From a virus (lineage: Duplodnaviria; Caudoviricetes), in IMG/VR virus record IMGVR_UViG_3300015606_001334, positions 128,001 through 192,000 of that record: DNA of 64,000 bases, one strand, 5' to 3'. The stretch's first letter is position 1; every line of letters begins with the position of its first letter. Positions 20,218-47,864 of the stretch are shown in pieces. A program made the position numbers and the translations under genes. The notes beneath the pieces were generated by a model that searched no databases, was not told where the DNA came from, and saw only the letters and a program-made list of their open reading frames with translations.

Positions 20218-20244
20218 TAAAGATCGTTTGCTGCAAGTGAAGTT

Positions 20245-20277
20245 GAATTATATCTTCAACTTCAGGTTTTGTAAACT
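20245..20277 (-). promoter_or_regulatory. early promoter
   Basis: GTTTACA...TATAAT. Confidence 0.75.
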
Positions 20278-20313
20278 GTTTCTTCAACAAATTTTCAAAA
20301 CCTTTACTACATT

Positions 20314-24532: not shown

Positions 24533-25052
24533 TTGACACCTCCATTAAGTAGTTAAACTTAATAGGTGTCAAACTCCATGTAAAATTTGATCTTCATTTC
24601 ATTCAATCCCAAAATGTTGTTTCAATACTTTTGCCATCCATTCACCATAGAATGAATCGGCTTCTTCCATTACTCGACAACCTTCCGCGAGTAAGAGCTC
24701 AGCGAAAAGCTTTTTGTCGAACACCTGAATCGTGGCATCCCACTGACGTTCATGTGGAACTTCGACTGTTGCTTTACGAATGAGCTTGTCAATTACCTTA
24801 CTCACTTGCCCATTCTCCTTTATGACGAAGAGCATCCTCAATGGAGGTATATCCACCCACTTCAGAGCGACCAATCTTCACGGTACAGACCGAGTCGTCA
24901 TACTCACCGTTGATGTACAGCTCCTTCTCAATGAGGGTTGCCTTACCGACCTTGAGCTTGCGAGCAACTTTGATCTTTACCTTAGCCATCGAAATTCTCC
25001 TCAATCAACTTGAAGAGAATTCTATATCAAATTTCGATCAATGTAAACTGAT

Positions 25053-25691
25053 TTATTCAGAGATGTACGATCTGAAGTTCTTAAGCATGCTTTGAATCTC
25101 GGTCTTAGCACTGTTACCAGCCCACGCAAAGGCAAACTTGAACCAATCCTTTGAGAACTTCGGCATTTCATTTCCAAAAACTGATTGGTAAATTTGATAG
25201 TGAGCGGTGTCTCCACTCAGAACTTTAGTGAATGGGATCTCATTGAACTCAAGCATTCGAATGATCGAAGCATCGATTTCACGGGCTTCTTCTTCATTCT
25301 GATTGCGACCAGTCGGGTCGTATGGATGATTACGCTCAATGAAGAAATTGTGGTTCTCGTAAGTACCCCACAGTTCGAAAATCAGATCTTCGAAAGTATT
25401 TGGCAGATAATCAGGCGTCTTGTAATGGATACCCAAGAGGATTGGAGAGTCCGAAACTACCCATTCAACTTGATCCTTAAGACGATCTAGACGACGGTTC
25501 TGGTTAGCAAGAACAAACAATTGATCAGAAAGAGCGCTGAAATTCTTTTCCCAAGTCTTATCCTTGGCGAACTCAGTTACTTCCTCGACATCCTTCTGAT
25601 TCTTCTTCATGAGACCAAAAAGGTCTGCACGAAGAGTAGATTTGCCAGCCCCAGGGCCAGCGAATAGGTTAATGACTTTCAACTTTGCCAT
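25053..25691 (-). CDS. P-loop NTPase/kinase (NadR-kinase/AAA_28-like)
   Basis: INLFAGPGAGKST, VSDSP, GRNQ. Confidence 0.8.
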   Translation of the reverse strand: MAKLKVINLFAGPGAGKSTLRADLFGLMKKNQKDVEEVTEFAKDKTWEKNFSALSDQLFVLANQNRRLDRLKDQVEWVVSDSPILLGIHYKTPDYLPNTFEDLIFELWGTYENHNFFIERNHPYDPTGRNQNEEEAREIDASIIRMLEFNEIPFTKVLSGDTAHYQIYQSVFGNEMPKFSKDWFKFAFAWAGNSAKTEIQSMLKNFRSYISE

Positions 25692-28007: not shown

Positions 28008-28035
28008 TTTATTGTTCTTATTATGGAAGTGAGGG

Positions 28036-28420
28036 TGGGGAAATGTTTCTGTTGCCAAGTACAACTTCCCCAAAAACTCCGACAGCTTTACCTATTTAAA
28101 GGATCAAGCAGCCACGCGGTAACTTTCGTCGTTTGCGTTTAACTTTTTTCTTCCACTAACGCAGGTTGCTCTCGAGTCGTTCCAATCTTGTTACTCATGC
28201 CATGTCGAGACCTGTCGACCCCATTAAAAAGAAACCTAGTATGACGATCACGTTCTCTTACTCTTTCGTCATCCTGCCTTGCCTTCTCATAGGTAAGATC
28301 GAAGAACGATCCATCTTACCTCGGGCGACCTCCTTGCGAGAGGACTTGGTTTCTTTTTGGTGGAGTCGAGGGGAATCGAACCCCTTTCCACAACACTTTC
28401 CCAATCAAAGTCTCAGGTAT
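28036..28420 (-). ncRNA. ssrA: two-piece (circularly permuted) tmRNA, tag (A)ANDESYRVAA*
   Basis: Acceptor piece ...GGGTTCGATTCCCCTCGACTCCACCA (28358-28420) precedes the GGGGTCGA...CTCGAC 5' piece (from 28222); tag frame 28136-28104; G3:U70. Confidence 0.9.
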
Positions 28421-28592
28421 TTCTACCCATACGACTATAAAAACTCTCGGTCATTCTTTCGATCGTCTTCCCATTTATCCCAGTTGTAATGAAAGATGGA
28501 ATAAATCCAACCACCAACACAACCAATGATTGTTACAACAACGAGAAGTTTTTCTACTTGATCAACCATGAAAAGAATTATATCACTATTTA

Positions 28593-28988
28593 TTAGCGTT
28601 GTAAACTGTTTTGTATCTTTTTTATCTTATCAGCCAAAGTTTCTGGAGTAAATGGCTTTACGATGTAAGAGCTTGCGCCCGCTTGAGCGGCAGCAATGAT
28701 GTTTTCTTTCTTTGCCTCAGCCGTAACCATCATCACTGGAATGTGAGCGGTCTTTGGATTCGCCTTTAGAGCTCGAAGCATATCCAAACCGTCCATGTTC
28801 GGCATGTTCCAGTCTGACACGATCAAAGTGATAGACTCAGCCATGTTTTCTGCAACAGAGTATCCTTTTCTTCCATCGTCAGCTTCGACAATGTTAGTGA
28901 ATCCTGCTTCCTTAAGGCACGCGATCAAGATTCTTCGCATAGTAGCGAAGTCATCCACGACTAATACTGGTTTGCTCGGGTCAATCAT
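28593..28988 (-). CDS. cheY: chemotaxis response regulator CheY
   Basis: VLVVDDFATMRRI, SDWNMPNMDG, MVTAEAKKENIIAAAQAGASSYIVKPFT. Confidence 0.92.
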   Translation of the reverse strand: MIDPSKPVLVVDDFATMRRILIACLKEAGFTNIVEADDGRKGYSVAENMAESITLIVSDWNMPNMDGLDMLRALKANPKTAHIPVMMVTAEAKKENIIAAAQAGASSYIVKPFTPETLADKIKKIQNSLQR

Positions 28989-32699: not shown

Positions 32700-34190
32700 T
32701 TAGTCGTTGCGTTCACCATAAGCGCGAGCGCGAATGGTTTCAAGATCGGTGAATTCCTTGAACCAACCACAGTCGTAAATGACTTCCATGATGTCTTCCC
32801 ATTCCGGATTGGTGGGTTCATCAGGGTTGGTCGGCAGGGTCATGATCTCGCCAGTCAGACGGCTACGGTAGGTGTTGAGGAAACCAGCCTTGGACTTCTT
32901 ACCGGGATCGGTAATCGGGTCCTTGAAGATTTCTTGCCACTTACCATCGACCTTGATGGCGCAAACCTTCTGAGCGAACTTGTAGGTATCGCGGTTCAGC
33001 TTTTGCAGCAATGCACCACCAGAACCGAACACCAAGTTCTGCGCAGAGTAGCCAAGATCGGTCACCAGTTGCAGAATCTTGCGGATCATCTCGATGTCGA
33101 TGCCATCGCCTTGGATGACGCCAACAGTGTTGATGACCTTATAGCCCTTGCTGTTAACAGTGAAGCCGAAAGTTGCAGCTTGCATGTCAAGCAGACGAGG
33201 AATGACTTCCAGCGGATCACCACTGTCAGGACGGAAGACGATACGAGCGCCGGACTTTTCGATCTGTTCCTTGAATTCAGTGCAAAGCAGCATGGATTCG
33301 CGGTACACGTCGTAACCGTCGAGCACGATCGAAACAATCGCACCAGGTTTCGCGTAGGTATCGAGGATCTTCTTCAGATATTCGCGTTGACGTTTCGGAC
33401 CGAACGAACACTGGATGCTGTGCTCAGTTGCAGGAACCGAGAAAGCAGCCATCGTGCAGTTGTAGTAGAAATTCGCAGCACGGATACCAGAGATGGTGTC
33501 AGAGCCAGTGAAGTTGACCAAGTGGGCCATGCCGCCGATCTGGGCGGATTCTTCAGAACTTACCCCACGGCCGCCAAAGTCATGCAACATGAACGGCAGA
33601 CCAGGATACTTGCCACGAAGGGTCGTTGCACCAGGAACCGGATCAACAGAGAGTTCGAAGAACTGTTCGATCACCTTGCGGATTTCGTAGTCCATCGAAG
33701 CAATCGTGGTCGGATACCAAACGGCACGCTGCATGGAAGTTTCGAGGTAGGAGGCAATCCATGCGACTTTCTTGTCTTCGCAGGTCGCGACATACAAGGC
33801 GTTGGCAGAAGGAATGGGGATACCTTCCTTGACGGCCTTGATCTTGAGGGGAATGAAGCCGTTGTACTTTTCGACGATGTATTCCCAAGGTTCACGGTCA
33901 AACGGTTCACCGTGGGCCTTTGCGAAATCTTCAGCTTCGTCGATCATGTCGATCGTAATCGGAGTGGAGAGGCGTTTGCGAATCCACATTTGGAGACCGA
34001 TCGGAACGACGATCTTGCCCTTGATGCGCGGCTCACCGTACGAAACTTGACCTTCCATCTCGTCCGGATAGACGGGACCGTGGGACAGTTTGTAGGAATC
34101 GGCGTCGAGGATGAAGTTTACCCCAAGAACATTGGGATTTTCGCGTTGGATTTGGCGACGGATTGCACGAGGCAGATCATTAAAATTCAT
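32700..34190 (-). CDS. nadV: nicotinamide phosphoribosyltransferase
   Basis: DSYKLSH, LHDFGGRG, SVPATEHS, RPDSGDP, IQGDG, FGSGGALLQKLNRDT. Confidence 0.95.
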   Translation of the reverse strand: MNFNDLPRAIRRQIQRENPNVLGVNFILDADSYKLSHGPVYPDEMEGQVSYGEPRIKGKIVVPIGLQMWIRKRLSTPITIDMIDEAEDFAKAHGEPFDREPWEYIVEKYNGFIPLKIKAVKEGIPIPSANALYVATCEDKKVAWIASYLETSMQRAVWYPTTIASMDYEIRKVIEQFFELSVDPVPGATTLRGKYPGLPFMLHDFGGRGVSSEESAQIGGMAHLVNFTGSDTISGIRAANFYYNCTMAAFSVPATEHSIQCSFGPKRQREYLKKILDTYAKPGAIVSIVLDGYDVYRESMLLCTEFKEQIEKSGARIVFRPDSGDPLEVIPRLLDMQAATFGFTVNSKGYKVINTVGVIQGDGIDIEMIRKILQLVTDLGYSAQNLVFGSGGALLQKLNRDTYKFAQKVCAIKVDGKWQEIFKDPITDPGKKSKAGFLNTYRSRLTGEIMTLPTNPDEPTNPEWEDIMEVIYDCGWFKEFTDLETIRARAYGERND

Positions 34191-34474
34191 TTGAAAGCTC
34201 CTTTCAAAGATTGAGAAATGTAACTGTCTATCAGCTACAGGAATATTTATTCCATCACGAACTCAGAAAAAGTAAACTGATTTTTCAAATATCTTCTACT
34301 TGATGATCAGGAGGAAATTCGCACTGCATTGGTTGACCGTCACGATCGAGGTATTCATGGTCCTCATCGATGATGTAAACCCAAGCGGACTTTTCAGACT
34401 TCTTGATGTAGTACTCACCAGTCTCGCCTTCGAAGAAGACTTCACCGACAGAAATTTGATCAAACGTTGCCATG

Positions 34475-34774
34475 TTAACCTCCGATGTTCAGTGAACCAA
34501 GATTATAGGACTTTTCTCCAGTGAAGAGGCTGTAGATCCCATAATTGAGGCTGTTGTAATGCTTCACTTCAGCTTCAGTCAATTCACGCGTTGTTTCTTT
34601 CGGGAAATGGACATCAACGAAGCCCAAGCCAGTAACCCAATTACCGATGTATTCAGTTTCGGTTTCTTTCGTGACTACACAAATATCGGGTTCTTCGCTG
34701 CTGATGTCACCAATCTTATGAAAAGCTTTGGTTGCCATCAGATATTTCGGTTGCTCAAGCTTAATAGGTTCCAT
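34475..34774 (-). CDS. hypothetical protein
   Basis: ORF. Confidence 0.65.
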   Translation of the reverse strand: MEPIKLEQPKYLMATKAFHKIGDISSEEPDICVVTKETETEYIGNWVTGLGFVDVHFPKETTRELTEAEVKHYNSLNYGIYSLFTGEKSYNLGSLNIGG

Positions 34775-34948
34775 TATCGTTCTCCGAGCGAGGCATTGTG
34801 GAGGTTCACAATATGCGAAGCCACCTCACGACCAAGATTGAAGGCGATGGCAATTTGCATGTTAACAAATTTGAACTCCAGCTTAACCTTGTACTCTTCT
34901 TCTGTAAAGATAGAGCTATCTTTTACGGTCCAGCGGACCTTACGAACA

Positions 34949-36220
34949 TCAACACTCATCTTCTTCATCTCCATAGAATTCTTCAATATGTTGCGGATTC
35001 ATCAACCTGCCTTCAGTGATGAGGTAGTCTTCTTCACCATGACACATAACCACATGAGAAGCATTGATGCGTGTACCAAATTCCGCAGCGAAAACCTTAG
35101 GTGAAAACATGTAAGGCCTACCATCAAGTACTGCGGGAAAACCATTTTCGCCAACAGCTTGATCTAGACAGGTAATAGCCAAAGAAATTCTACCAATCCT
35201 TTTTACAGGAACTTTGAACTGGTCCTTCAAGATCCGAGCGATCGCATCATCGATATCAAGAATGGCGAGTCGCAGAGAACCTTGGAATTCATGCGGCTTG
35301 TTGGTTTCATCGACCACATTGAATAGGCGACCAAAGCCATCCTCTCCGTCGGTGATTTCACGCTTCAACGGTCCTGCGCCATGGCGGGTGAGGTACGGTC
35401 GGGTCACATAAGCAAGGTTGATAGGATCATCAATCTTTGCGGTGTCAAGAACACGGAGGACATTGTCGATACCAGTGAAAGACCTCGTCACATGAGGAAA
35501 ATCCGCAGACTCCTGATCGAGTGCCAGTCCTTGAGCACCTTCAAAAACGAGGTTATCAAACTGATTCAATGCCTCAGCCTCATCCATGACGATTACCCGC
35601 TCAAGGAAAGCTCGACATTGTAGCTCATATTGATGGTAGACATGGCGCAGATTCCCCATCACGACGTTGTCGATGCCGAGTTCTGCCAATCTCATTGGTA
35701 TGTACTCACCAAGGATGGCATTGATCTTCATGCAAAGGGTAGGACGATGGATGATGTCCTCAACCGTCAGTTGAAAATCGCAATAGTCGTAACCATGGCG
35801 TTCGACAGTCTCACCGAAGCCAACACCAACTGAGCCATGTCGGCCATCGCCTCGTGCACGCTCAATCTCTTGATTGATAAACATATCCCATGGTGTAGTG
35901 ATGGGACATTTCGGATCCACGTAGATGTCAGGCCTGATGACTCCCTTTCGGATCAGCTCGTTGTTCTCCTTCATGAACAGGTACGGAGAGCAGACGAAAT
36001 CCTTCGTCAAGATGGTAGGGATGTAGTCAAAGCTTCCAGAGCCGAAGTGCGAGAACACATGGCGCTGACGACCACTGACGACCGTATGTCCTGCTTGGGC
36101 ACCACCATTAAATCGGACGACTGCGCACTTGTCGTAATTTTTAGCGGCGAAGTAGTTGGTCATACGACCTTTACCTTCGTCGCCGTAGTTGGCGCCAATG
36201 ACGACTTGAATATTTTTCAT
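34949..36220 (-). CDS. purA: adenylosuccinate synthetase-like protein
   Basis: GANYGDEGKG, GGAQAGHT, FEGAQG, TRHGAGP. Confidence 0.85.
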   Translation of the reverse strand: MKNIQVVIGANYGDEGKGRMTNYFAAKNYDKCAVVRFNGGAQAGHTVVSGRQRHVFSHFGSGSFDYIPTILTKDFVCSPYLFMKENNELIRKGVIRPDIYVDPKCPITTPWDMFINQEIERARGDGRHGSVGVGFGETVERHGYDYCDFQLTVEDIIHRPTLCMKINAILGEYIPMRLAELGIDNVVMGNLRHVYHQYELQCRAFLERVIVMDEAEALNQFDNLVFEGAQGLALDQESADFPHVTRSFTGIDNVLRVLDTAKIDDPINLAYVTRPYLTRHGAGPLKREITDGEDGFGRLFNVVDETNKPHEFQGSLRLAILDIDDAIARILKDQFKVPVKRIGRISLAITCLDQAVGENGFPAVLDGRPYMFSPKVFAAEFGTRINASHVVMCHGEEDYLITEGRLMNPQHIEEFYGDEEDEC

Positions 36221-36436
36221 TATTACGCCTTAAACGTCATGAGTTGAAGAAACACTTTATTTCTACGAACACCATCGTAATCCAGAGAAGTTGCGACCGC
36301 GCAAAGGGCAATTGGATCAACTTCTTCAGCATAATGCTTGCTGAAGTAGTCAATCGTTGTTAAAAAATCAGTACACCCATTTTCGCATTCTTCAGCGATA
36401 ATCTTTATGATCTTTTTGATGTCCACGATTTATCCT

Positions 36437-36748
36437 TTAAAGGAAGAACCGAGTGTCATCAATCAGAACCATCGCCTCGTTCATGTCGAGGCTGATGTCG
36501 TGATCGTTCATTTCGTTGAAGTTGGCGGCAAACTTCCCATCGACGCCGATGATGGAATACGCATCATGCACCGGAGAAAGAATCAGATGGGGCTTGGAGT
36601 CAGACGTTCCAGAAGCAATGCCTCGAATGACGTAAATGCCGAGCTCGACGTTGAAGAACATGTCGCCGTGGAAGGTATCTTCACGGAGTTCGGGAACTTG
36701 GAACATCAGACCAGTTTTAACGCAACGCATGGATTTCTCCTTCATCAA
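36437..36748 (-). CDS. hypothetical protein
   Basis: ORF. Confidence 0.6.
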   Translation of the reverse strand: MMKEKSMRCVKTGLMFQVPELREDTFHGDMFFNVELGIYVIRGIASGTSDSKPHLILSPVHDAYSIIGVDGKFAANFNEMNDHDISLDMNEAMVLIDDTRFFL

Positions 36749-36763
36749 TATAGAGACATTATA

Positions 36764-37519
36764 TCATGTCGGGAAGAGTTTGGAAACGATTTTCTTCAAT
36801 GTCGACGGAGCATAGCACTCACGTTTGCCAGCAACAGTGACCATGATTGCTTTGTCAGGCTTTTCTGCAGCCTTCATAAGATCGATCGCTTCGTCTAGAG
36901 AGTCTTCATGATATTCTATCGAAGCATTGCGATCAGAAAAATTGACTCCTGAAATATTTCCAGTATGGGATCTAAAGTATTTCTCAAGATCTTCGCAAAG
37001 TTCCTCGGCGATTTTTTCAACGAGTTCAGGAGGAGAAATGAGGCTGAACTGGATTTCCATGACGCCTTCAGAGGTGTAGATGTCTCCATCCTTACTAGGA
37101 TTCAGCGTGACATCGTAGTAAAACTCGGTGAAGGTGAAACGGCGTGGGATCATCCGATTCTCAGAAAGATAGTACTTTCCAATAGGACAATATGAAAAGG
37201 CTTGGAGAGCTGTCAACGCATTGTCAAGACTACGTTGCACTGCCTGACGATCATCGTTATTACCGTAAGCTCGAAAATGGAAGGTGCAAGTGAGTGCACA
37301 AGACCAAGCCCGATTCGACGTGACACTGATTAGGTCTTGAAGAGACTCAAAATATTCCTTGTAGGTCTCACCATTTGACAGCGAGATAGTCACATTACTA
37401 TCGTCACCAGCCGCCATTTGACGAACCATCTGAACAGGATTCTTTGGGTCATTCGTTGCAAGAATGAACTTCTTGTTGATGAACTTGATTTCTGCCGGGT
37501 CTTCGTATTTCGGATTCAT
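36764..37519 (-). CDS. hypothetical protein
   Basis: 251-aa ORF. Confidence 0.7.
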   Translation of the reverse strand: MNPKYEDPAEIKFINKKFILATNDPKNPVQMVRQMAAGDDSNVTISLSNGETYKEYFESLQDLISVTSNRAWSCALTCTFHFRAYGNNDDRQAVQRSLDNALTALQAFSYCPIGKYYLSENRMIPRRFTFTEFYYDVTLNPSKDGDIYTSEGVMEIQFSLISPPELVEKIAEELCEDLEKYFRSHTGNISGVNFSDRNASIEYHEDSLDEAIDLMKAAEKPDKAIMVTVAGKRECYAPSTLKKIVSKLFPT

Positions 37520-37596
37520 ATCACATCGTATTCAGAAAATTGCATTATAAACTAAAAAAGGGAACCTAGGTTCCCTTTTTCTAACGAATGTTTTCG

Positions 37597-38520
37597 TTAC
37601 AGGCCGAGCGCGTGACGAACTACAGCTTGAGCCTTACTGTTTTCCCAGCTACCGATGACCTTTTCAGGATCAGCGCCTTCATTGACTTCCATGACGGAGA
37701 TGATGACTTCCGAAATGTAGTCGTAGTCGCTCAACAGAATTGCCTTCTTGCCGAGCAGGTTGCGCCATTTCGCAACAGTATCGTTGCGGCTTTGGCTGTA
37801 AGAACAGTGACTGCCTTGTTCACAGATGATGTGGAAGACGTTGTACTTTTCTTGGGCCAGTTCAAGCATTTCCTTGGAGGAATAGCTCTTTTCTTCGCCA
37901 CCGTTAAAGATGTTGTTGATCTGAGCAGAGGTGAGACCTTGAGGCGGTGGCGGCTCATCACCAATCGTGAACAGATAACCCTTTTGACCGCGCTTTTCGA
38001 AGCAGTCGATTGCGGTACGCTTACCAGCGAAGTACCACGGAATGTCGTACGACTCGAAAGCGTTACCACCACCGCCACCTTCCAGCCACAGTTCCTTCAG
38101 TTGTTCAGCGATACGAATATCGGCTTCGAACTGAGAAACTTGCAGAGGAGCACGATCGCAGAAGGCGTCGCCAATAGCCATGACCATCACGTGCGGATCA
38201 TCGACCGGCTTGCGGGTGAGGATACCATCAACCAGTTTGCCGAGACCTTCAGTTGCAATCTTTTCAGCAACGATGCCCATGGAACCAGTAACGTCCAGGC
38301 CGAGGATGATCGCGTTGGAATTCGGATTGGCTTCGGAATCGCGAGATTCGCGGAGCATCACGCCCTTCGGATCAAAGATCGACTTGATGGAAGTTTGCTT
38401 GAAAACTTGAGCACGAGCTGCGGTATCGGAAAAACCTTTTGCGCGAGCAGTACTCAAAGTTGCGGAAGTTGCGCTTGCATAAGCGCGATAATCATTGTTG
38501 TCCCAACGACTGTAACCCAT
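37597..38520 (-). CDS. vWA (MIDAS) domain protein
   Basis: LDVTGSM, GGGGN..ESY, TIGDE. Confidence 0.85.
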   Translation of the reverse strand: MGYSRWDNNDYRAYASATSATLSTARAKGFSDTAARAQVFKQTSIKSIFDPKGVMLRESRDSEANPNSNAIILGLDVTGSMGIVAEKIATEGLGKLVDGILTRKPVDDPHVMVMAIGDAFCDRAPLQVSQFEADIRIAEQLKELWLEGGGGGNAFESYDIPWYFAGKRTAIDCFEKRGQKGYLFTIGDEPPPPQGLTSAQINNIFNGGEEKSYSSKEMLELAQEKYNVFHIICEQGSHCSYSQSRNDTVAKWRNLLGKKAILLSDYDYISEVIISVMEVNEGADPEKVIGSWENSKAQAVVRHALGL

Positions 38521-38531
38521 CTTGATTCTCC

Positions 38532-39032
38532 TTAAAAACAATCTGCTTCATCGATACCACCGAACATTTCTTGGTCAATGTCGTAATCAACATAACCATA
38601 TTGGTCTTTTACGTACTTCTTCGAAACCGTTTTAAATGTAAGTGGATCAACTACTTGCTTTTCGTAAACTTGCTGAACCGGCTTTTTCTTACCACCGAAA
38701 ATTCCAGTATCATTCTTGAGCTTTTCATCCCGAGCGATCAGAGATTTTGGGTCATAAATTGCACCGTTGATCTCGACCTCGTACATGTCAGGCTTTCCAG
38801 AAGCATTCTTCAATCTACCAATGACATAAATGTCTCTGTTGTTGTAGACTTCAGGATTACCAGGGCCTTGCATGACCGAAGCAATCTTTGCTGCTGAATG
38901 ACGTTGGACATATCCTACATGGTTGAACTTGTCGTACTTCCAAACAAGGACCTTGTAAGCATTTTTGTCGTATGCATTCGTCGGTTCGGCCTTCAAAAAG
39001 ATTCTAGCGCCAGGACCAACTTCTTCCAACAT
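38532..39032 (-). CDS. HIRAN domain protein (probably expressed as a -1 frameshift fusion)
   Basis: EPTNAYDKNA..V...VGYV; the IVGQYYRG strand lies upstream of the first ATG. Confidence 0.8.
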   Translation of the reverse strand: MLEEVGPGARIFLKAEPTNAYDKNAYKVLVWKYDKFNHVGYVQRHSAAKIASVMQGPGNPEVYNNRDIYVIGRLKNASGKPDMYEVEINGAIYDPKSLIARDEKLKNDTGIFGGKKKPVQQVYEKQVVDPLTFKTVSKKYVKDQYGYVDYDIDQEMFGGIDEADCF

Positions 39033-39172
39033 ACGAGTTGCCCATGCGCCGCGATAATACTGACCGACGATAGGAACTACGAGTCCAGATAACGAAGGAA
39101 CCGGTTTGATTCCTTCATTAGCCGTCGCATTGGTGGAAGGAGAAACCTTCTCTCCTTCCTTACCTGAACCCG

Positions 39173-40036
39173 TTACTCGAAAAAACTCTTGCCGCCCTTG
39201 TTACCACCCATGAGCTTCGACATGAGCATCATCTGCATCATGCCACCCATCGGGTTGGCAGCAGCCGGAGCTGCAGGAGCTGTAGCCTTTACGGTAGCCG
39301 CAGCTTCAACGATCTTGGCCCAAGCAGAAATTGCTTCCTGATAGGCAACCAATGCTTCGTTGTTGCGCTTGTTGATTTCGACGATTTCTGCCTTGGTAGC
39401 AGAAGCAGGAATGTCTTCCTGAACCAGCTTCGGTTGAGCAGGAATTTCGATGGCGACGCCACCAGCTGCTGCCGGAGCGGCCTGATCTTGACCCATCATG
39501 CTCATCATGAGCATCATTTGGACCATGTCACCAGCATCTTCATTGGTGGAGCCGGCCATCAGCATCGGCAGCATCATTTGGAAGTTTTGCTGGCCAGTAG
39601 CACCGGTCAGGGAGAAGAGGTTACGGAGAACCATGACGCCAGATTGATCCATGCCCATGGTAACGACCTTGTTGCGGCGCAGAGTGCCTTCGCTGGAGTC
39701 GGTGTTCAGAAGGATCAGAGAATTCGGGTTCTTTTCAACAACCCAGCCCGGACGACCACCAGGACGGAAGGCCAGATCACCGAGTTGGACGTCATCGAAC
39801 GGGACGCTTTGAGCGAAAGCCGGAACGGCCATGCCGAATTCAGAGAACATGTTTTCAACGACTTGGGCTGCTTCGCCTTCGCCGTTCAGAGAGAAGATGG
39901 AACCGTTCTTGCCGAGGATACCCATCTTACCGGTGGAAATATCCCAAACGACGTCCTTGACCGGCTGGAACATTCGAGCCAGCATCTTGTCGCCGATGGT
40001 TTGACCGAACTTGTTAAGTGCTTGATTTGCTTGCAT
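39173..40036 (-). CDS. Met/Ala-rich hypothetical protein
   Basis: High-expression codon bias, AAGGAG RBS. Confidence 0.8.
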   Translation of the reverse strand: MQANQALNKFGQTIGDKMLARMFQPVKDVVWDISTGKMGILGKNGSIFSLNGEGEAAQVVENMFSEFGMAVPAFAQSVPFDDVQLGDLAFRPGGRPGWVVEKNPNSLILLNTDSSEGTLRRNKVVTMGMDQSGVMVLRNLFSLTGATGQQNFQMMLPMLMAGSTNEDAGDMVQMMLMMSMMGQDQAAPAAAGGVAIEIPAQPKLVQEDIPASATKAEIVEINKRNNEALVAYQEAISAWAKIVEAAATVKATAPAAPAAANPMGGMMQMMLMSKLMGGNKGGKSFFE

Positions 40037-40343
40037 GTCTAAAACTCCTTTTTGACAGAAAAAACTACAGAAAGTCTATCTTCCTGTAGGATCGATTGAG
40101 TTATTCAACCGATACATAAATTATATACTAATTCCAGAAAGAGTAAACTGATTTTGAAAAATTTAATCTGATTTTTGATTCAAATAACTCAGATGTTCTT
40201 GAACCCTCTCGAACCATTCACGAACATAATGCTCGTACAATGATCCGAACTTTTTGACGGCTTCTTCAGCATCCCCGAACCAGGCTTCATTTACCCCTGT
40301 TCAAGAGGTTCAAACCATTCTTCAAAGCTTTTAAGCTGTTCAA

Positions 40344-40970
40344 TCATTTAGGTGCTACCTTTCGAAATTCGGTTGAGAGATTATTGTAGACAATTCGGAA
40401 CTTCTCGTCAATCTCTTCCCAAGTTTCACATGACATCACGTCGTAGTACTCTAGATTCTTTGACGTGATGTCATGGATTTTACCAGTCGTCGCTAGCTGA
40501 ATACCAAAATCGATAATACGAATTGCGTGCCAAGCAGACTTCTTACCAATAAGCGGCGCATAGTCTTCTGGAACTTTCAGCTTCTTCTTAGCTTTTACCC
40601 AGCTATTCGAAGCCTTACGAGAAATACTTTCGCGTAACATAGGCAGAGAAATCTTAGGCATCGCATGCATCTTGCCATATACCAAAGTGCCATTAATGCT
40701 ATAAGCGCGAACGTTGTTGACACATTCAAGGAATGAAATTTCCATTCCATCCAAGCCCCTGAGAAACTCTTCCTCAGTGTAGAGATTTACGTCAAACTTC
40801 GAGAATGAAAGCTGGAAGTATTCCCTTGCAATGGCAATAGCACGAGATTGAATGGTGACATCATCTTTACGATCAACAATAACGATTAAATCGAAATCTG
40901 ATCCAGGTTGAGCGGTCCCATAAACTGTTGAACCGTAAAGATAAATTGAAATGATATTAGCGGATGCCAT
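40344..40970 (-). CDS. nucleotidyltransferase (Pol beta superfamily)
   Basis: YGSTVYGT...SDFD. Confidence 0.8.
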   Translation of the reverse strand: MASANIISIYLYGSTVYGTAQPGSDFDLIVIVDRKDDVTIQSRAIAIAREYFQLSFSKFDVNLYTEEEFLRGLDGMEISFLECVNNVRAYSINGTLVYGKMHAMPKISLPMLRESISRKASNSWVKAKKKLKVPEDYAPLIGKKSAWHAIRIIDFGIQLATTGKIHDITSKNLEYYDVMSCETWEEIDEKFRIVYNNLSTEFRKVAPK

Positions 40971-41529
40971 ACTTAAGTTTGAGTTCCTTGATCTTGTCAT
41001 CCCAATTATAATCTACTGCCATGGAAATTGACATAGGAACTTCATCTTTAGCTTCATCATGTGACCACAACAATTGATATTTACCATTTGGTGTTTCATA
41101 AACCTGATCGTGACAATGCAGCGAATTACCTACCGAAATCGGTTCGAGTTTGAGAGTGTTAATGTAGTTGAAAATTTCCCATCTTCCCCGCTCACTCTCA
41201 ACTTCTTCCCATCGAGTTTCGCCATTTAGACGTCTGAGGAAATTTAGATTCTTAAGTTCCTTTTCATATTCGATTTCTTCAGGAGTTGGTTCCTTAACCT
41301 CTTCCATAATCAAACGGAACTTGACAATCTCGCAATCTTCTACTTTGTAACGTCCCCAACGAGACTCATTCTCAAGGGACTTCGTCGCTACCTTAGGAGA
41401 GTTGTAGACTGAAGGGATATCGGTCTCGTAGAACGAATGACCAGGAGTTTTCTTCAGATACCTACCAGTTGGAATATAACGAATGGCGTACTGAAAAACT
41501 TCCTTATTTGGAACAATAGACTTAGTCAT
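40957..41529 (-). CDS. hypothetical protein
   Basis: ORF. Confidence 0.6.
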   Translation of the reverse strand: MTKSIVPNKEVFQYAIRYIPTGRYLKKTPGHSFYETDIPSVYNSPKVATKSLENESRWGRYKVEDCEIVKFRLIMEEVKEPTPEEIEYEKELKNLNFLRRLNGETRWEEVESERGRWEIFNYINTLKLEPISVGNSLHCHDQVYETPNGKYQLLWSHDEAKDEVPMSISMAVDYNWDDKIKELKLKYGIR

Positions 41530-41861
41530 TAGAACATCCGAATATTTGAAACCACGCCATCGTTTACATACAAGTTCCAACGGAACGGTAGATGACTGGC
41601 TGTAAGTTCATACCCTTTACCATCACGCTCAGCAACGCGGAACACACAACGATCTTTAATCGCTGACATAACTTCGTGTTCACTTTTCCCGATGAACGAC
41701 TGAGGATCTAGAATTTCGCTTTTCACGTTTGAGCCTTTCTCTATGTTGCTTTCGATTTTCTCCTGGTAAACGACCAATAGGAACCTATTGGTCTTGCCGA
41801 CGGAGATAGTATGCATTTTGTCCATATTTTGTAAATTCGTCCTCAAAATCTAAAGCTGCCA

Positions 41862-42740
41862 TTACGTCCATAAACTCCTACGAATCTTGATGAGGCGAAT
41901 GAGCATCTCTTCATCTTCTTTTTCGTATGCTTCTTCGATTTCATTACAGGCGATACTACATTTGCGACCTTCTTCAGCGAGGTCTGGGGACTGGTCATTT
42001 AGTCCTGCCAGGAAATCTCCATCATGACGTTCTTCGAGCTTTTTGAAATATTCGGAATACCCAGAAGCGTCATGAGGATCAGGTCGCTGTGGACGAATAT
42101 GCTTCCACCAATGGTACAACTCAAACTGTTCTTTAGCCGCTTCGGCCTGCCCGGTCAACTTCCCATAATCTCCGGATTCTTTAGCTTGTTGGATTGATTC
42201 TTCATCATTACCATACCAGCTATCATCCTTAACGAGGGACATTTCCCATTCAAGGTACTCGATTCCTGCCAAGGGATGACGCTTCTCGCTTGCGAACCAA
42301 TTCAGCCAACCATTCATCTCGTACCATTTGTAGCCATACTTCTTACGATTTTCGTCCTGGCCCCAAATGACGTGCATCCATGCTTTTTCGATTTCGATAA
42401 AGTCTACCAATGTTTCAAACATCCCATGGAGAATACGAGTGTCGACTTCATGATACTGCCAAGGATTTAACTTTGTCGGAAGATAGTGGTATTTGTCGAA
42501 GTACTTGGCATTAATCGCACAACGAAGATCCCACAGCTTATCTTTCGGCCAACAAAAGAAATCTTGGATCTTGTTGAAAGCAGTGTCAGTCAACCAATGA
42601 ATAAAGGGCGCTTTGCCCTCACTCATTTCTCTCCAAAGCTTCCAATCTTCGCTAGTCAAAGCGTGTGGATTGGTTAAGCCAAATTTTACACGGAGCCAAT
42701 GAGCAAAGCTGCTATTGCTCCAATAATTGATACGACTCAA
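41862..42740 (-). CDS. conserved hypothetical phage protein (..LIRLIKIRRSLWT)
   Basis: Trp-rich ORF. Confidence 0.75.
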   Translation of the reverse strand: MSRINYWSNSSFAHWLRVKFGLTNPHALTSEDWKLWREMSEGKAPFIHWLTDTAFNKIQDFFCWPKDKLWDLRCAINAKYFDKYHYLPTKLNPWQYHEVDTRILHGMFETLVDFIEIEKAWMHVIWGQDENRKKYGYKWYEMNGWLNWFASEKRHPLAGIEYLEWEMSLVKDDSWYGNDEESIQQAKESGDYGKLTGQAEAAKEQFELYHWWKHIRPQRPDPHDASGYSEYFKKLEERHDGDFLAGLNDQSPDLAEEGRKCSIACNEIEEAYEKEDEEMLIRLIKIRRSLWT

Positions 42741-43051
42741 ATTACGATTTCCTTTAGAAATTCAGACCGTGGCAAATTCTGGAATGCCTTCGACTCGTCA
42801 AAGTACATGACGGTCCAGTCTGGTAGATTTTGTTTCAATTTGAACGCAAGAGCGTAGCCATTCTTGGCAAAGAGCTGAACATCAAACAGATCTTCTTCGA
42901 GCGAAACGCGATCGTATTCTGCTTGCCATTCAGTGATCATTGATTTCAGCCAATAATGAATTGGTAGGTCGTTGATGTCAATATTAGTCCCATTTTCGTC
43001 CCATACTCCAGACGAACAATAATCAGCCATTAGTCGGACATATTTTGCCAT
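42737..43051 (-). CDS. hypothetical protein
   Basis: ORF. Confidence 0.7.
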   Translation of the reverse strand: MAKYVRLMADYCSSGVWDENGTNIDINDLPIHYWLKSMITEWQAEYDRVSLEEDLFDVQLFAKNGYALAFKLKQNLPDWTVMYFDESKAFQNLPRSEFLKEIVI

Positions 43052-43052
43052 T

Positions 43053-43583
43053 TTAACTTTCCTTCTTTTCTAATTTCTTTTTAAACTCGTCAACGATAAT
43101 AGGATCAACGTACTGCTCGACGATTCGTTCCCAACCTTGGAAGCCAACAAGACCCTTCACTGTAGAAGAGCTGACTTCCGTCATAGCTGAAGGAGGGATG
43201 AAGAAAACGGTCTCAACATTCGGGTTGATCTTGCGATTGACTTGCTGAATCTGTGATTCGTAGTTGAAGTCTTCTGTGTTGCGAATACCGCGGAAGATAT
43301 ACGAAGCTCCAATCTTACGAGCGTGGTTGATTAGCAACTCATCGCTGATAGTTTCAATGACAATGTTCTCAAACAGCGAAACTGGAAGAGTATTGTGAAG
43401 GACTGATCGGATTTGTTGCTCACGCTCCTCAACAGAGAAGTAACCTTTCTTCGCTGAGTTCGTGCCAATTACGACATGGAGTTTTCCATCAGGAGCAATC
43501 ATGCCTCCAGCAGCTCGAATCAGCCACATGTGACCGAGAGTAATTGGGTCGAATGAGCCTGCAACAATTCCAATCTTAGCCAT
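43053..43583 (-). CDS. coaD: phosphopantetheine adenylyltransferase
   Basis: GSFDPITLGH, RGIRN..DFNYE, VSSSTVK. Confidence 0.9.
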   Translation of the reverse strand: MAKIGIVAGSFDPITLGHMWLIRAAGGMIAPDGKLHVVIGTNSAKKGYFSVEEREQQIRSVLHNTLPVSLFENIVIETISDELLINHARKIGASYIFRGIRNTEDFNYESQIQQVNRKINPNVETVFFIPPSAMTEVSSSTVKGLVGFQGWERIVEQYVDPIIVDEFKKKLEKKES

Positions 43584-43585
43584 TT

Positions 43586-44032
43586 TTATTTCCGAATTTC
43601 GATATCAGGGACGATTGCAGCCGGCTTAAACGTAACACGATAGTTGTACTGGCTGACGTTGGACGGTTCCATTTGTTCAGCGAAGTAGGTCACGTTTTCA
43701 GAAATGCCGAGGAAGCTCTTCTTAAAGCTGTTCGGACCAGTCTTGCAGGTAACAGCTACCGCCTTGGTTTCAGAAGCGCTGCCAATCGAGCAGAGACCTT
43801 CGATAACCAGCATATACTCGCCGTTCATGGTGTTGTAGAAAACAATTCGACGATTGATTTCGAAATTGTCGGCAGCCTTCTTCAAGTTGTCTGAAGCAAT
43901 TTGCGCATCACTACACCCAACTGCTAGTATACCAATCAGACATGCTGAAATAATGATAGTCAGAATATTCGTTATCTTCTTGTGAGTTTTCATTTCTTGG
44001 TTCATTTCAATCTTTCTTTTGTAGTTGCTCAA
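43586..44032 (-). CDS. conserved phage lipoprotein
   Basis: Lipobox AVG-C; A.NFEINRRIVFYN. Confidence 0.75.
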   Translation of the reverse strand: MSNYKRKIEMNQEMKTHKKITNILTIIISACLIGILAVGCSDAQIASDNLKKAADNFEINRRIVFYNTMNGEYMLVIEGLCSIGSASETKAVAVTCKTGPNSFKKSFLGISENVTYFAEQMEPSNVSQYNYRVTFKPAAIVPDIEIRK

Positions 44033-44660
44033 TTAGTATCTTGACATTTTCACGTCCGATTTGTTCCCAACCTGCATCTTTGGCAAATTCAGAAAAGTAC
44101 AGCTTTGGTCGTCCCAAGAAGCTTTGAAGGACTTGGGTACGGCCATGAGAATAAATCTCGTCATTGTATTGAGAGAATTCTTTACGAATGTCCTTCTCAA
44201 ATTGTTGTAGACGTTTTTCAGTTTCAGAAAGAATTCGAAGATCTGCATCAAGGAACATTTTGATGTCTTCAATTTCGGCTTCGGAGAACTTTCCACGATT
44301 TCGAACTCGATCAAGAGTATGACCTTTAGTGCAGCCGATCATCGCCAAAGCTAGACGAACGGTCCGATATTCGGGATCATCAATGTCAAGATCCTTCAAA
44401 TGAGGATTGTCTTCTTCAATCTTTTCGAGAAACATTCGACACGAGTTGATTTCATTGTGCTCATAGGCTTCATCAACTTCGTAGACGATATCATGAAATT
44501 CTGCAGCAAGTTCAGCAGCTCTAAAGTTACTGAACTTGTGCTTCATTAGATACAGAGTATCAAGCACATGACAAACATGTGCGTAGTTATGGTAGTGTCG
44601 ATGCTTCCTGCTAAGCTCTTTAAGCAGAAACTTTCGAGTCTTGTCGCTGATCTGCAACAT
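44007..44660 (-). CDS. HD-superfamily phosphohydrolase
   Basis: RHYHN..H, FHDIVY, NE..S, FLDADL.IL. Confidence 0.85.
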   Translation of the reverse strand: MLQISDKTRKFLLKELSRKHRHYHNYAHVCHVLDTLYLMKHKFSNFRAAELAAEFHDIVYEVDEAYEHNEINSCRMFLEKIEEDNPHLKDLDIDDPEYRTVRLALAMIGCTKGHTLDRVRNRGKFSEAEIEDIKMFLDADLRILSETEKRLQQFEKDIRKEFSQYNDEIYSHGRTQVLQSFLGRPKLYFSEFAKDAGWEQIGRENVKILIEQLQKKD

Positions 44661-45288
44661 GGAAGAAAACCTTTCTGAACTTGTGCTTCATTAGGTCGGT
44701 TACATGAACATCACAATGACCATGAGTATTGTCGATGACGTAATCGGCGTTTTCAATCTTGTACTGTTGAGGTACTTGAGTTGACATTATATCACGAACT
44801 TTTTCTTCTGTAAACCCGTCGCGATTTTTGACGCGTTGTACACGAACTTCGTCGTCAGCTGCAACCACGATAACCTTGACCTTGGTTCGAACCAATTGCA
44901 TTTTGGTAGAGAGCTTCTTCATCTCGAAGAACATTGGCATCTCGATCACCATGGTATTCACAGGCTTACGATTTACCAGTTCGATGAATTTGTCTTCAAC
45001 CAGCTTAAAGAAGAATTGGTTGAGCTCATCCAGGAGAATTTTGGTTGTTTCGGTTTTACCAAGCTGTCGACTCTGATTGAACACGATGTCGCTGATTTCC
45101 TTTTTATCGGAGGTGCCAAACATCGTTTTCAGGAACTGCTTGACATCCTCTCGTTCGTACAACTCTCGAGTGTAGTCATCAAAATTGAAGAAGCCAACTT
45201 TGACTTCAGAACTCCGCTTAATGGACTCGATCACGCTCGACTTGCCGGAACCGATCCCGCCAGTAATTACAATGGTTTCAATTTTCAT
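44620..45288 (-). CDS. coaE: dephospho-CoA kinase
   Basis: ITGGIGSGKSS, E.P..FE, RV.R...RDG, ADYVIDN. Confidence 0.88.
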   Translation of the reverse strand: MKIETIVITGGIGSGKSSVIESIKRSSEVKVGFFNFDDYTRELYEREDVKQFLKTMFGTSDKKEISDIVFNQSRQLGKTETTKILLDELNQFFFKLVEDKFIELVNRKPVNTMVIEMPMFFEMKKLSTKMQLVRTKVKVIVVAADDEVRVQRVKNRDGFTEEKVRDIMSTQVPQQYKIENADYVIDNTHGHCDVHVTDLMKHKFRKVFFHVADQRQDSKVSA

Positions 45289-45564
45289 TTTAGAGTTTCT
45301 TCAGTTTTTCAGATAGATGATAAGCAAGACGTTTGCGAACTTTCTCGCCAACTTCCTCGCGCCATTTTTGAGTTCGCTCGTTAAAGGCGAAAATGGATTC
45401 TTCTTCAGGATTTCTGATAGGCTTTGGAAATTGCTTCCACTCCTCTTCGCGAATCATCGAACCCGCAAATTGGAAAGGGTGGTTAATTCCCATCATCACA
45501 TAAACAGCAGCTTCCGTTTTATTGAATACCGGAATCTGTTTCAATTCATCGCTCATTGCTTTCC

Positions 45565-46227
45565 TTATTTTGGAAACTTCAAACCTGTCTTGATGTTGAT
45601 CTTGTCGATAGTTGTGGAATGGACGCCAGAGGTTTCGTTGTTGTCTGCGTAGAAAGCTTTCGAACTTCCATCCGATAGATAGATAATTTTATAATATCCC
45701 GCCGGAATTGGAACAAGATTTACAATTTTTTCATCACCTTCATAAACTGCACCAGTGACTACATTGATCGGCTTTTTGCCAGCGATAGCCATCTTACGAG
45801 TCAAATGCTCAAGCTTCTTCCATTGGCCGCGATTTAGCTTTGGATCTTGTGGAGTCATGTTCGTCATGAGGTAAGTATCGAACATTTCTTCTGGTGAAGT
45901 TGAATCGTCAGAAGGGACCAAATGACCCTTATCTTTCTGGGTTCCTGCATAAACAGCAGGCTTTACAGGATCTTTTAGTCGCTTATCTGCGTGGAACGAA
46001 TTCTTGCGGGACAAATCATGTCCGCTTGGTTGAAGCAGCTCAGAAGAGAATAGAGCACGTTTGTTATCGTCGTCGTATTGGGTAACGAAGAATGAATTGC
46101 AAAGCTCAACTGCGCCCTTTGGTTGGATGGTTTTACCATTTGGGTAAAATTGCGGACATGAAGCAAAAGCCACTCCACTAATTAGTAGCAGAATGTCCAG
46201 AATGAGAAATTTTTTCAAAATGTTCAT
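45565..46227 (-). CDS. secreted DNA/RNA non-specific endonuclease
   Basis: Signal peptide, DKGHL, MTNMTPQ...LNRG.WK.LE. Confidence 0.9.
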   Translation of the reverse strand: MNILKKFLILDILLLISGVAFASCPQFYPNGKTIQPKGAVELCNSFFVTQYDDDNKRALFSSELLQPSGHDLSRKNSFHADKRLKDPVKPAVYAGTQKDKGHLVPSDDSTSPEEMFDTYLMTNMTPQDPKLNRGQWKKLEHLTRKMAIAGKKPINVVTGAVYEGDEKIVNLVPIPAGYYKIIYLSDGSSKAFYADNNETSGVHSTTIDKINIKTGLKFPK

Positions 46228-46289
46228 AAGTAATCCTAAACAAGAAAAGGAGAGAAACACTCTCTCCTTCTCTTATTTACTTCAGTCGG

Positions 46290-47384
46290 TTAGAGATTAC
46301 CAACCAACTTTTGCACGATGAATGAGTGATCTTCGAACATCATGTTTTCCATTTGCTTGAACTCAGCAAGAGGGACCCATTTGACTCGAGTTACATCACA
46401 TTCAGGATCGGTGTTACCTTGCTGTGAACCCTTGACTTTCGGCAGACCTTCTGGAACGGCATCCAAAGCGAAGTAGAAACCGAAGGTAACGGTACGACCG
46501 CGAAGAGAACGCTCAGGATCGTCGAAGTAATCGCGATTCTTGACTGAACCACGAAGTTTGGCTTCAGGAACCTTGATCTTCGTTTCTTCTTGCAGCTCAC
46601 GGATGACGGCATCGAAGATACGTTCTTTCGGATTCACGAAGCCGCCAGGCAGAGCCCAAAGACCTTCACCAGGCATAGCACCACGACGGACAAGAAGAAT
46701 GTGACCGGCTTGGATTACCACTGCATCAACAGTGATAAAAGTCGGTTCATAAGGAGCGGCTTCCCAAGCGCCCTTATACTTCTTGACATGTTGGTATTCT
46801 GATCGGAAACGGTCAGCTTGATCGCGCTCAGTCGAGAAGAATTCTTCGATCCAGTGCATTGCTGCACGAGGGATGTCATTGCGAATCGATTCAGGAAGAG
46901 CGTGAACGTTCAGGTAACCAGTGGATTCAAACAGGAAGTTGCGAATTTCAGTTGCGTTGATCTTGCCGAATTCTTCGATTTCGACACGTTCCCACTGAGG
47001 GAAAAGGTCAAGGTAGAAGGAGGTGTGATCACGCTTGAAACCGATGATGCCGATCTTTGCATCATCTTTGTCGGTCTTGACGTTGACGACAGCTTGAACT
47101 TCAGACAGCCAAAGTTCATCGTTGTACGGATAGTCGTGGATCGGTACGACCTTGACGCGCTTTTGTGAAATGCCTTCATCCTTGAGAACGGCACGAATCA
47201 TGTTTTCACGTTGTTGTGCAGTCCACGGGTTACGGATGTTATTTGCGCGATTGCTACTGCCAAGAAGAATGAGAACTTCATCAGCTTGGTCGAGAGCGGC
47301 CTTCAGAGTTTGAAGGTGACCGTTGTGAAATGGTTGAAAACGGCCGATGTAGACGATGCTGTCGAACTTGCGAGTCTTAGACAT
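46290..47384 (-). CDS. nadM: bifunctional NMN adenylyltransferase / Nudix ADP-ribose pyrophosphatase
   Basis: IGRFQPFHNGH, NATEIR, ALPGGF...RELQEET. Confidence 0.93.
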   Translation of the reverse strand: MSKTRKFDSIVYIGRFQPFHNGHLQTLKAALDQADEVLILLGSSNRANNIRNPWTAQQRENMIRAVLKDEGISQKRVKVVPIHDYPYNDELWLSEVQAVVNVKTDKDDAKIGIIGFKRDHTSFYLDLFPQWERVEIEEFGKINATEIRNFLFESTGYLNVHALPESIRNDIPRAAMHWIEEFFSTERDQADRFRSEYQHVKKYKGAWEAAPYEPTFITVDAVVIQAGHILLVRRGAMPGEGLWALPGGFVNPKERIFDAVIRELQEETKIKVPEAKLRGSVKNRDYFDDPERSLRGRTVTFGFYFALDAVPEGLPKVKGSQQGNTDPECDVTRVKWVPLAEFKQMENMMFEDHSFIVQKLVGNL

Positions 47385-47471
47385 ATATAGAGCTCCTCTA
47401 TAAATATTGATAAATTGTTGGTCTTTCCAACAGGAATATTTATTGTATCAAGACTTCAAGAGATTGTAAAC

Positions 47472-47864
47472 ATGAAAATCACAGAAATTCACCAAGCAGA
47501 TCTTGCCGAACCAACACATGAGGTTCCACTGTCAAAAGCTGAGCAGCTTGACGAGATCCTTTTGTTCTTCAGAGAGAACCCTTCCGCTGGCCGCAAAGAT
47601 CTTCTAGCTCTAAACAAAGCTCTTGGTGTTTCAGAGGAAGAAGTTGAGAACCTTGAGTTTGAACTTTGCAAAGCCCTATGCTCACGGATTGGCAAGAACG
47701 TCAACCATGGCGATGAAAAGGTAGACGAAGCTGAGCTAGAAAAGGGAGTTCAACACGAGATGGAACATACCAACGATCAGTATATCGCAAGATTGATCGC
47801 TCTTGACCATCTTTACGAAATTCCAGATTACTACACCCAACTAGCTAAGTTTGACAAAGATTAA
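47472..47864 (+). CDS. DUF5661-like protein
   Basis: G..HEMEHT....A..IALDHL.E.PDYYT.L; the only clear plus-strand gene. Confidence 0.7.
   Translation: MKITEIHQADLAEPTHEVPLSKAEQLDEILLFFRENPSAGRKDLLALNKALGVSEEEVENLEFELCKALCSRIGKNVNHGDEKVDEAELEKGVQHEMEHTNDQYIARLIALDHLYEIPDYYTQLAKFDKD

Follow-up and report, generated by a model that had tools for sequence, protein, structure and literature searches.

A two-hairpin leader RNA shared by NAD-salvage genes of a phage and its relatives

Here we describe a small leader RNA that recurs three times in a 64,000-nucleotide stretch of phage DNA (the window; bases 128,001-192,000 of the 359,550-bp IMG/VR virus record IMGVR_UViG_3300015606_001334, 43% G+C), upstream of nadV, natV and a third gene, P0001. 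At all three sites lies a copy of one cis-regulatory leader RNA of nicotinamide adenine dinucleotide (NAD) salvage genes, conserved and uncatalogued. We judge it very probable that this is a genuine, NAD-salvage-specific leader that acts on translation. Its best overall explanation, to which we assign a probability of about 0.5 from comparative sequence evidence, is a translational operator that is read by a protein and closes the ribosome site. Through the NadV and NatV pathway phages restore NAD+ once bacterial immunity has depleted it, and we know of no description of how this pathway is controlled, either in phages or in bacteria with the same operon. The nadV and natV genes studied here are the known NARP2 pair of phages, which reportedly reconstitutes NAD+ through the NadV and NatV enzymes.

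The minus strand holds almost all genes near the three leaders. On this strand nadV, natV and P0001 each have a 5' leader of the same two-hairpin design, composed of the following features.

32700-34190, minus strand: nadV, nicotinamide phosphoribosyltransferase, 496 aa (Pfam NAPRTase 7e-46, NAMPT_N 1e-16; phrog_448 5e-134)
46290-47384, minus strand: natV (NadM-Nudix), nicotinamide mononucleotide (NMN) adenylyltransferase fused to a Nudix hydrolase, 364 aa (Pfam CTP_transf_like 3e-13, NUDIX 7e-20; phrog_395 1e-75)
39173-40036, minus strand: P0001, 287 aa, with a beta-rich N-terminal domain, Met/Ala-rich helices and an invariant C-terminal FF
34219-34239, minus strand: nadV hairpin 1, UGUAGCUG-AUAGA-CAGUUACA, 8-bp stem, G-C closure (covariance model R1, 40.6 bits, E 1.3e-6)
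34190-34208, minus strand: nadV hairpin 2, UUUGAAAG-GAG-CUUUCAAA, GGAG at the apex, its last A being the A of AUG
47416-47432, minus strand: natV hairpin 1, UGUUGG-AAAGA-CCAACA, 6 bp, G-C closure (R1, E 2e-4)
47386-47402, minus strand: natV hairpin 2, UAUAGAG-GAG-CUCUAUA, one nt 5' of the AUG at 47384
40065-40089, minus strand: P0001 hairpin 1, CUACAGGAAG-AUAGA-CUUUCUGUAG, 10 bp, G-C closure (R1, E 4.8e-4), with a run of six U at 40059-40064
40037-40056, minus strand: P0001 hairpin 2, GUCAAAAA-GGAG-UUUUAGAC, 7 pairs and one A.A mismatch, abutting the AUG at 40036
40091-40113, minus strand: P0001 hairpin 0, an extra 5'-terminal hairpin seen in the fold, 9 bp, loop AUAAC, at the predicted transcript start

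Hairpin 1 carries a G-A(U/A)AGA-C loop (AUAGA in nadV and P0001, AAAGA in natV) on stems that differ from leader to leader yet pair, and hairpin 2 presents a GGAG Shine-Dalgarno (SD) sequence in a loop of 3-4 nt, with the spacer between SD and AUG as its 3' arm, which ends at the AUG (and in nadV takes in the A of the start codon). Minimum free energy and centroid folds (ViennaRNA) give both hairpins in all three leaders. The two-hairpin design, the paired but differing stems and the apical GGAG before ATG, which a first-pass annotation had read from the letters of the window, were all borne out on the minus strand. That annotation had also counted a 5' CCT as part of the motif, but the triplet is not conserved, a 93%-identical relative having CUU. 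The U-rich linker that it described is a trait of this phage lineage and not of the leader family, in which the linker varies in length and sequence. In the nadV and natV folds the first G of GGAG is paired (P=0.94 in nadV); the fold z-scores of the leaders are modest, from -1.5 to -2.9. Predicted folding shows hairpin 2 closing the ribosome-binding site, with GGAG held in the 3-4 nt loop and the SD-AUG spacer paired.

We examined how specific the element is within the whole 359,550-bp genome. Only four hairpins with a G-AWAGA-C loop and a stem of at least 5 bp occur, and three of the four are the leaders, with 6, 8 and 10 bp. Likewise, R1, a covariance model built from 38 leaders (4 inner pairs of hairpin 1 and 7 pairs of hairpin 2), matches the three leaders with E values of 1e-6 to 5e-4, scores that follow by construction from the presence of these leaders in the seed, whereas the lack of other matches does not. 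The next match (E 0.086) lies in coding sequence and has no start codon. Occurrence of the motif upstream of unrelated genes throughout the genome, which would have argued against a dedicated element, was therefore not observed, with 3 matches in 359.5 kb. The string GAWAGAC by itself is not enriched in the window (28 found, 22 expected), so that only its hairpin context is special. Hairpins of at least 6 bp that hold an SD in the loop and end at AUG precede about 8 of the 315 SD-plus-AUG starts of the genome, those of nadV and natV being the strongest. A loose pattern search combined with a stem detector was too noisy (32 matches against 9-20 in shuffled sequence), and the covariance model was used instead.

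The same leader recurs in other phages. In IMG/VR contigs the region upstream of NatV homologues displays a promoter, often ATAAATA, hairpin 1, linker, SD hairpin and AUG, with AGAGA, AGUGA, AUAGA or GUAGA as the hairpin 1 loop, and a second copy precedes the nadV gene that adjoins natV. Five other phage genomes of 195-382 kb have 2-3 R1 matches each, all at natV, nadV or pnuC; in one of 282 kb (L108, G001:239935-239979) the leader precedes a PnuC transporter gene (PF04973, 2e-37) followed by a NadR-like NMN adenylyltransferase. Among 80 phage nadV loci fetched by protein similarity alone, 53 carry the leader. All 53 of these independent matches are on the sense strand and end at the nadV AUG, and none occurs elsewhere in 204 kb. 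In most of the other 27 loci either hairpin 1 has diverged, or nadV follows natV immediately and has just hairpin 2. The alignment of the 53 matches, which was fitted to the model, is 92% paired, a value reached by none of 500 shuffles. Across the leader alignments pairing extends to 89-92% of cells and double-sided changes are numerous, the 89% being that of the R1 seed, which was chosen with a hairpin detector and is biased upwards, and slid controls collapse. The three paralogous stems in the window differ from one another and show compensatory changes in relatives (for example GUAGUUG-AAAGA-CAACUAC as hairpin 1 of the nadV relative in L095).

In bacteria, nadM-nadV operons of Gamma- and Alphaproteobacteria (Neptuniibacter, Oceanospirillum, Dasania, Psychrobacter, Methylomonas, Caulobacter vibrioides T5M6 and Aestuariispira) carry the leader, with GG-RNAGA-CC as its apex, before both genes; in the Alphaproteobacterial copies hairpin 1 is extended and contains an internal loop. 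Every one of the three window sites shares the features of the family, namely an A-N-N-G-A pentaloop closed by G-C or C-G, a linker of 4-17 nt and an SD-in-loop hairpin ending at AUG. The gene that the leader immediately precedes serves NAD salvage or uptake in the case of nadV and natV here and of natV, nadV and pnuC elsewhere. The exceptions are P0001, an SPFH/Band 7 gene in Dasania (L127:5164-5232) and a phage gene for a 213-aa protein without a family match (L027:723-770). Together the data show an element that is strand-specific, transcript-internal and gene-specific, with the pairing and the loop of hairpin 1 under selection. What stands of the initial proposal, a riboswitch or translational operator of an NAD/ADP-ribose regulon, is a shared RNA-level leader specific to the NAD-salvage regulon. 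Apart from the RNA leader, the nadM promoters of Xanthobacteraceae and Caulobacter (L132:2400-2500, L134:2400-2500) hold a TTAGCATAA-type palindrome over the -10 region, which may be an NrtR-type operator and would give two layers of control. In T4-like phages of RB43/RB16 size (~176-180 kb; L059-L064, L083), natV is operon-internal and has only an SD-loop hairpin, AACGUG-GAG-CACGUU, with no hairpin 1.

Early promoters stand upstream of all three leaders. An early sigma-70-like promoter, cAGTTTACa-N17-TATAATTC, occurs ~50 times in the phage, predominantly on the minus strand, and the leader is present on 3 of these ~50 early-promoter transcripts.

34249-34276, minus strand: nadV early promoter, -35 TTTACT (34276-34271), 16-nt spacer, -10 TGGAAT (34254-34249), of the cAGTTTACa-N17-TATAAT family
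40120-40147, minus strand: P0001 early promoter, TTTACT-N16-TATAAT
47442-47470, minus strand: natV early promoter, TTTACA-N17-TACAAT

In the 93%-identical relative the nadV -10 hexamer reads TAGAAT at the same position. A 15-mer, AATAAATATTCCTGT, is common to nadV (34251-34237) and natV (47444-47430) and spans the -10 region and the transcript start; the 12-mer AATAAATATTCC inside it occurs genome-wide only at these two genes. In nadV and natV the predicted transcript start falls no more than a few nt from the beginning of hairpin 1. We considered whether the shared ATAAATA may mark a T4-type late promoter; TATAAATA is not enriched overall (31 found, ~32 expected), but in many relatives ATAAATA does lie 2-9 nt 5' of hairpin 1. 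At many early promoters (e.g. window 20240-20290, 25010-25060 and 28570-28620, minus strand) the -10 hexamer is framed by an inverted repeat whose two arms lie in the spacer and in the first transcribed bases. Such promoters resemble the promoter-stem-loop cassettes of T4-type phages.

We suggest that hairpin 1, 4-17 nt upstream of hairpin 2, would serve as the recognition module, with a freely varying stem and a fixed A-N-N-G-A pentaloop on a G-C or C-G pair. A trans-acting reader bound there, beside the ribosome site, would block the 30S subunit or stabilise hairpin 2, and a translational operator of this kind would tie the output of nadV, natV and the unit led by P0001 to one signal. The reader may be a protein inherited with the operon. 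NatV would be the best candidate, with less support than the operator itself, and its binding could be set by NAD-related nucleotides, providing autogenous feedback; for a protein such as NatV as reader we see a chance of even or a shade below. The pair that closes the loop is informative here. It is G-C in all leaders of some genomes, including the three of this phage, and C-G in all leaders of others, and none of the more than 25 genomes with at least two leaders mixes the two (L015 and L051 each have one A-U closure, beside C-G or G-C). On the NatV tree, which is quick and weakly supported, the class changes 2-4 times. Concerted change of this sort leans towards a co-inherited protein or gene conversion and would not be required by a universal small ligand; because the closing pair agrees between leaders within a genome, a protein reader is favoured over a ligand.

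Several observations weigh against a protein-read operator. Gene conversion between leaders, or a small number of independent lineages, could account for the concordance of closing pairs, and both the tree and the pairing percentages carry the limits given above. Copies of nadV inside operons retain hairpin 2 but have no hairpin 1, so hairpin 2 may serve translational coupling or tuning by itself. The leader was not found in the Betaproteobacterial NadM-Nudix operon homologues examined, hence NatV alone does not predict it. Finally, guanidine-II RNAs demonstrate that two tiny hairpins can be a riboswitch. A minimal riboswitch, in which the hairpin 1 pentaloop, jointly with either the linker or the loop of hairpin 2, would bind NAD+, NMN, ADP-ribose, nicotinamide or phosphoribosyl pyrophosphate and thereby make the SD hairpin more or less stable, would fit the strict link, in phages and in two proteobacterial classes, to genes of NAD uptake and salvage, the conserved loop on freely covarying stems, the sequestered SD, the extended Alphaproteobacterial hairpin 1 with its internal loop and the guanidine-II (mini-ykkC) precedent, in which conserved loops cap two small hairpins joined by a variable linker. 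We nevertheless regard it as a tentative possibility only, given that conservation is limited to ~3 loop nucleotides and the closing pair, that both loops are purine-rich and cannot form a Watson-Crick kissing interaction, and that no Rfam riboswitch family matches. By eye and in the folds, no consistent complementarity of the hairpin 1 loop with the linker, the hairpin 2 arms or the SD loop was seen, and folds and alignment inspection revealed neither a conserved core of aptamer type, nor a pseudoknot, nor a mutually exclusive alternative pairing. It is because no conserved pocket, pseudoknot or alternative fold was found, and because a universal ligand does not require a closing-pair class that is concordant within each genome, that the protein-read operator is favoured over a riboswitch.

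An element without any reader was also weighed, in which hairpin 1 would protect the 5' end from RNase or pyrophosphohydrolase and hairpin 2 would set a low fixed level of translation or coupling. The closeness of hairpin 1 to the predicted start in nadV and natV, the persistence of hairpin 2 alone in operon-internal nadV genes and the modest z-scores agree with it. A stabiliser, however, needs no invariant A-N-N-G-A loop or G-C/C-G closure across phages and bacteria and would not be confined to NAD genes, on so few of the early-promoter transcripts, and hairpin 1 is not 5'-terminal in the P0001 leader or in L096 and L098, which also have an extra hairpin 5' of hairpin 1; we hold this explanation to be improbable. 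Least credible of all, and by a wide measure, is control at the DNA level, either by a dimeric repressor such as NrtR on an inverted repeat or through a mobile promoter-stem-loop cassette of the T4 type. Each hairpin is also a DNA palindrome, many early promoters here have inverted repeats around the -10, the Caulobacter and Xanthobacteraceae nadM promoters carry the separate TTAGCATAA-type palindrome, and NrtR reportedly controls nadM-nadV and prs-nadV operons. Yet the conserved half-site palindrome of an NrtR-type operator is absent: arm sequences are entirely different from site to site here and among relatives, and only the asymmetric centre is fixed. Moreover, the 53 independent matches are all sense-stranded and keep a fixed distance to the AUG, the hairpins are downstream of the -10 inside the transcript, and the second hairpin is built on the SD.

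The protein-read operator has parallels among known systems. Enzyme-read autogenous operators (E. coli thrS and threonyl-tRNA synthetase, gene 43 and the DNA polymerase of T4/RB69, the T4 RegA sites) likewise place a short hairpin with a sequence-specific loop at or near the ribosome site, and they include phage-borne examples in which one operator type is common to several mRNAs. The leader differs from them in its A-N-N-G-A loop, in the second hairpin that presents the SD and in its NAD-salvage regulon in phages and bacteria. PyrR, a nucleotide-binding enzyme-like protein, reads a purine-rich hairpin apex in the pyr leaders of Bacillus, and the apex of C-G-class leaders, CC-AGAGA-GG (L027, L018), looks similar to that apex. 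The shared logic would be that a protein of nucleotide metabolism recognises a hairpin loop carried by the leaders of its own pathway. Unlike the PyrR site, the leader has no Rfam model match at E<=1, carries G-AWAGA-C loops in this phage, lacks an antiterminator/terminator switch, appears to control translation and implicates no PyrR-type protein.

Among riboswitches, guanidine-II shares with the leader two small hairpins of variable stem and conserved loop, a variable linker and a second hairpin near the SD. The loops of the leader are AWAGA and GAG/GGAG, not ACGR, and are not self-complementary, its two hairpins are dissimilar and its context is NAD salvage; membership in guanidine-II, with its two ACGR tetraloops, was thus rejected. 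The class I (nadA motif) and class II (pnuC motif) NAD+ riboswitches are also cis leaders of NAD biosynthesis or uptake genes, class II acting on the SD and preceding pnuC. The leader differs from both in architecture, in taxa (phages, Gamma- and Alphaproteobacteria) and in genes (nadV, nadM-Nudix), and it has no Rfam 15 similarity: cmscan gave no match on any leader when the window was searched at the gathering threshold, positions 33900-47700 at E<=5 and 15 leader-bearing phage and bacterial loci at E<=1. No description of the leader was found in the literature on nadV riboswitches or on natV/nadV phages.

The third leader points to P0001 and the genes behind it, which form the following unit.

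34949-40036, minus strand: unit led by P0001, comprising P0001, HIRAN, vWA-fold (37597-38541), orf251 and PurA-like (34949-36220) genes

No further promoter of the early family occurs in this unit before nadV. The first-pass annotation had argued that the motif implicates 39173-40036 in the regulon, and this was supported. Relatives of P0001 with 84% (L098), 64% (L095) and 42% (L096) identity keep the leader, with hairpin 1 stems that differ yet pair (UUGGAAG/CUUUCAG, CAUGCGG/CCGCAUG and AGACG/CGUCU, respectively) around AUAGA or AAAGA loops; hairpin 2 of the L095 copy has the same design down to the A.A mismatch. In L010/L014, L013 and L113 a P0001 homologue lies directly behind a leader-bearing nadV, and synteny with nadV or natV is seen in several contigs. 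Because relatives keep the leader with compensatory changes and others sit behind a leader-bearing nadV, the comparison supports membership of P0001 in the NAD-salvage leader regulon. More distant relatives (32-43% identity) are mostly operon-internal and without a leader of their own. Hairpin 1 of P0001 (10 bp, 4 GC) followed by its U6 resembles an intrinsic terminator, and the leaders of P0001 relatives have U-rich tails; the U-run is absent from the nadV and natV leaders here and from most family members. The P0001 leader may thus also attenuate transcription.

The P0001 protein, which ends in SFFE with the FF invariant across the family, has no significant match in Pfam, PHROGs, NCBIfam, PADLOC or a PDB profile search. 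Close metagenomic relatives are numerous, others show ~40-64% identity, and the ESM Atlas gives only unnamed viral clusters, at 0.84. Its AlphaFold model is poor (predicted local distance difference test, pLDDT, 58.6), and the sole fold signal, an SH3/KOW/EF-P-like barrel at residues 75-138 (Z 6.5-7.5), lies within the stated background of the tool. No domain match ties P0001 to NAD or ADP-ribose chemistry, and its conserved partners are the vWA-fold protein and the PurA-like enzyme. The order P0001, phrog_2971, PurA-like is kept across 14 loci, often beside nadV or natV. The phrog_2971 protein (37597-38541) has a D-x-T-G-S motif like that of a metal ion-dependent adhesion site, and its model (pLDDT 75, predicted template modelling score 0.79) matches only vWA and integrin I domains; the PurA-like enzyme (34949-36220) scores far below the cut-offs for adenylosuccinate synthase. 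A HIRAN domain gene (window 38532-39032) lies downstream of P0001. Upstream of the cassette one relative has TerC/TerD and another an MVP-shoulder protein.

A compact and widespread leader that marks NAD-salvage genes offers a testable control point and a portable regulatory part, and would be a new entry for catalogues of RNA families. It also acts as a genomic flag for further regulon members, here directing attention to a conserved P0001/vWA-fold/PurA-like cassette that is otherwise unlinked to NAD. To our knowledge the published NARP2 work describes the enzymes and not the shared leader RNA or these neighbours. That the leader is a new, very small riboswitch or ribo-regulator of the NAD pathway in jumbo and T4-type phages and in Gamma- and Alphaproteobacteria, with a regulon that extends here to the cassette, we consider unlikely. 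If the regulon does reach it, the cassette would be a new arm of the restoration of phage nucleotide and NAD pools, a counter-defence switched by the NadV/NatV signal.

The surroundings of the leaders are of further interest. A search of 16 kb of the window against 50,697 phage records (megablast) gave no match. On the minus strand between natV and P0001 lie genes for a CoaE-like kinase (44620-45288) and a 176-aa cytidylyltransferase-like protein (43053-43583), which together with the NAD genes make up a nucleotide-cofactor island whose genes are also present in L095. Elsewhere the window contains a permuted, two-piece alpha-type transfer-messenger RNA with the tag ANDESYRVAA (28013-28450) and ~29 tRNA genes (237-21199), several of them with long inserts.

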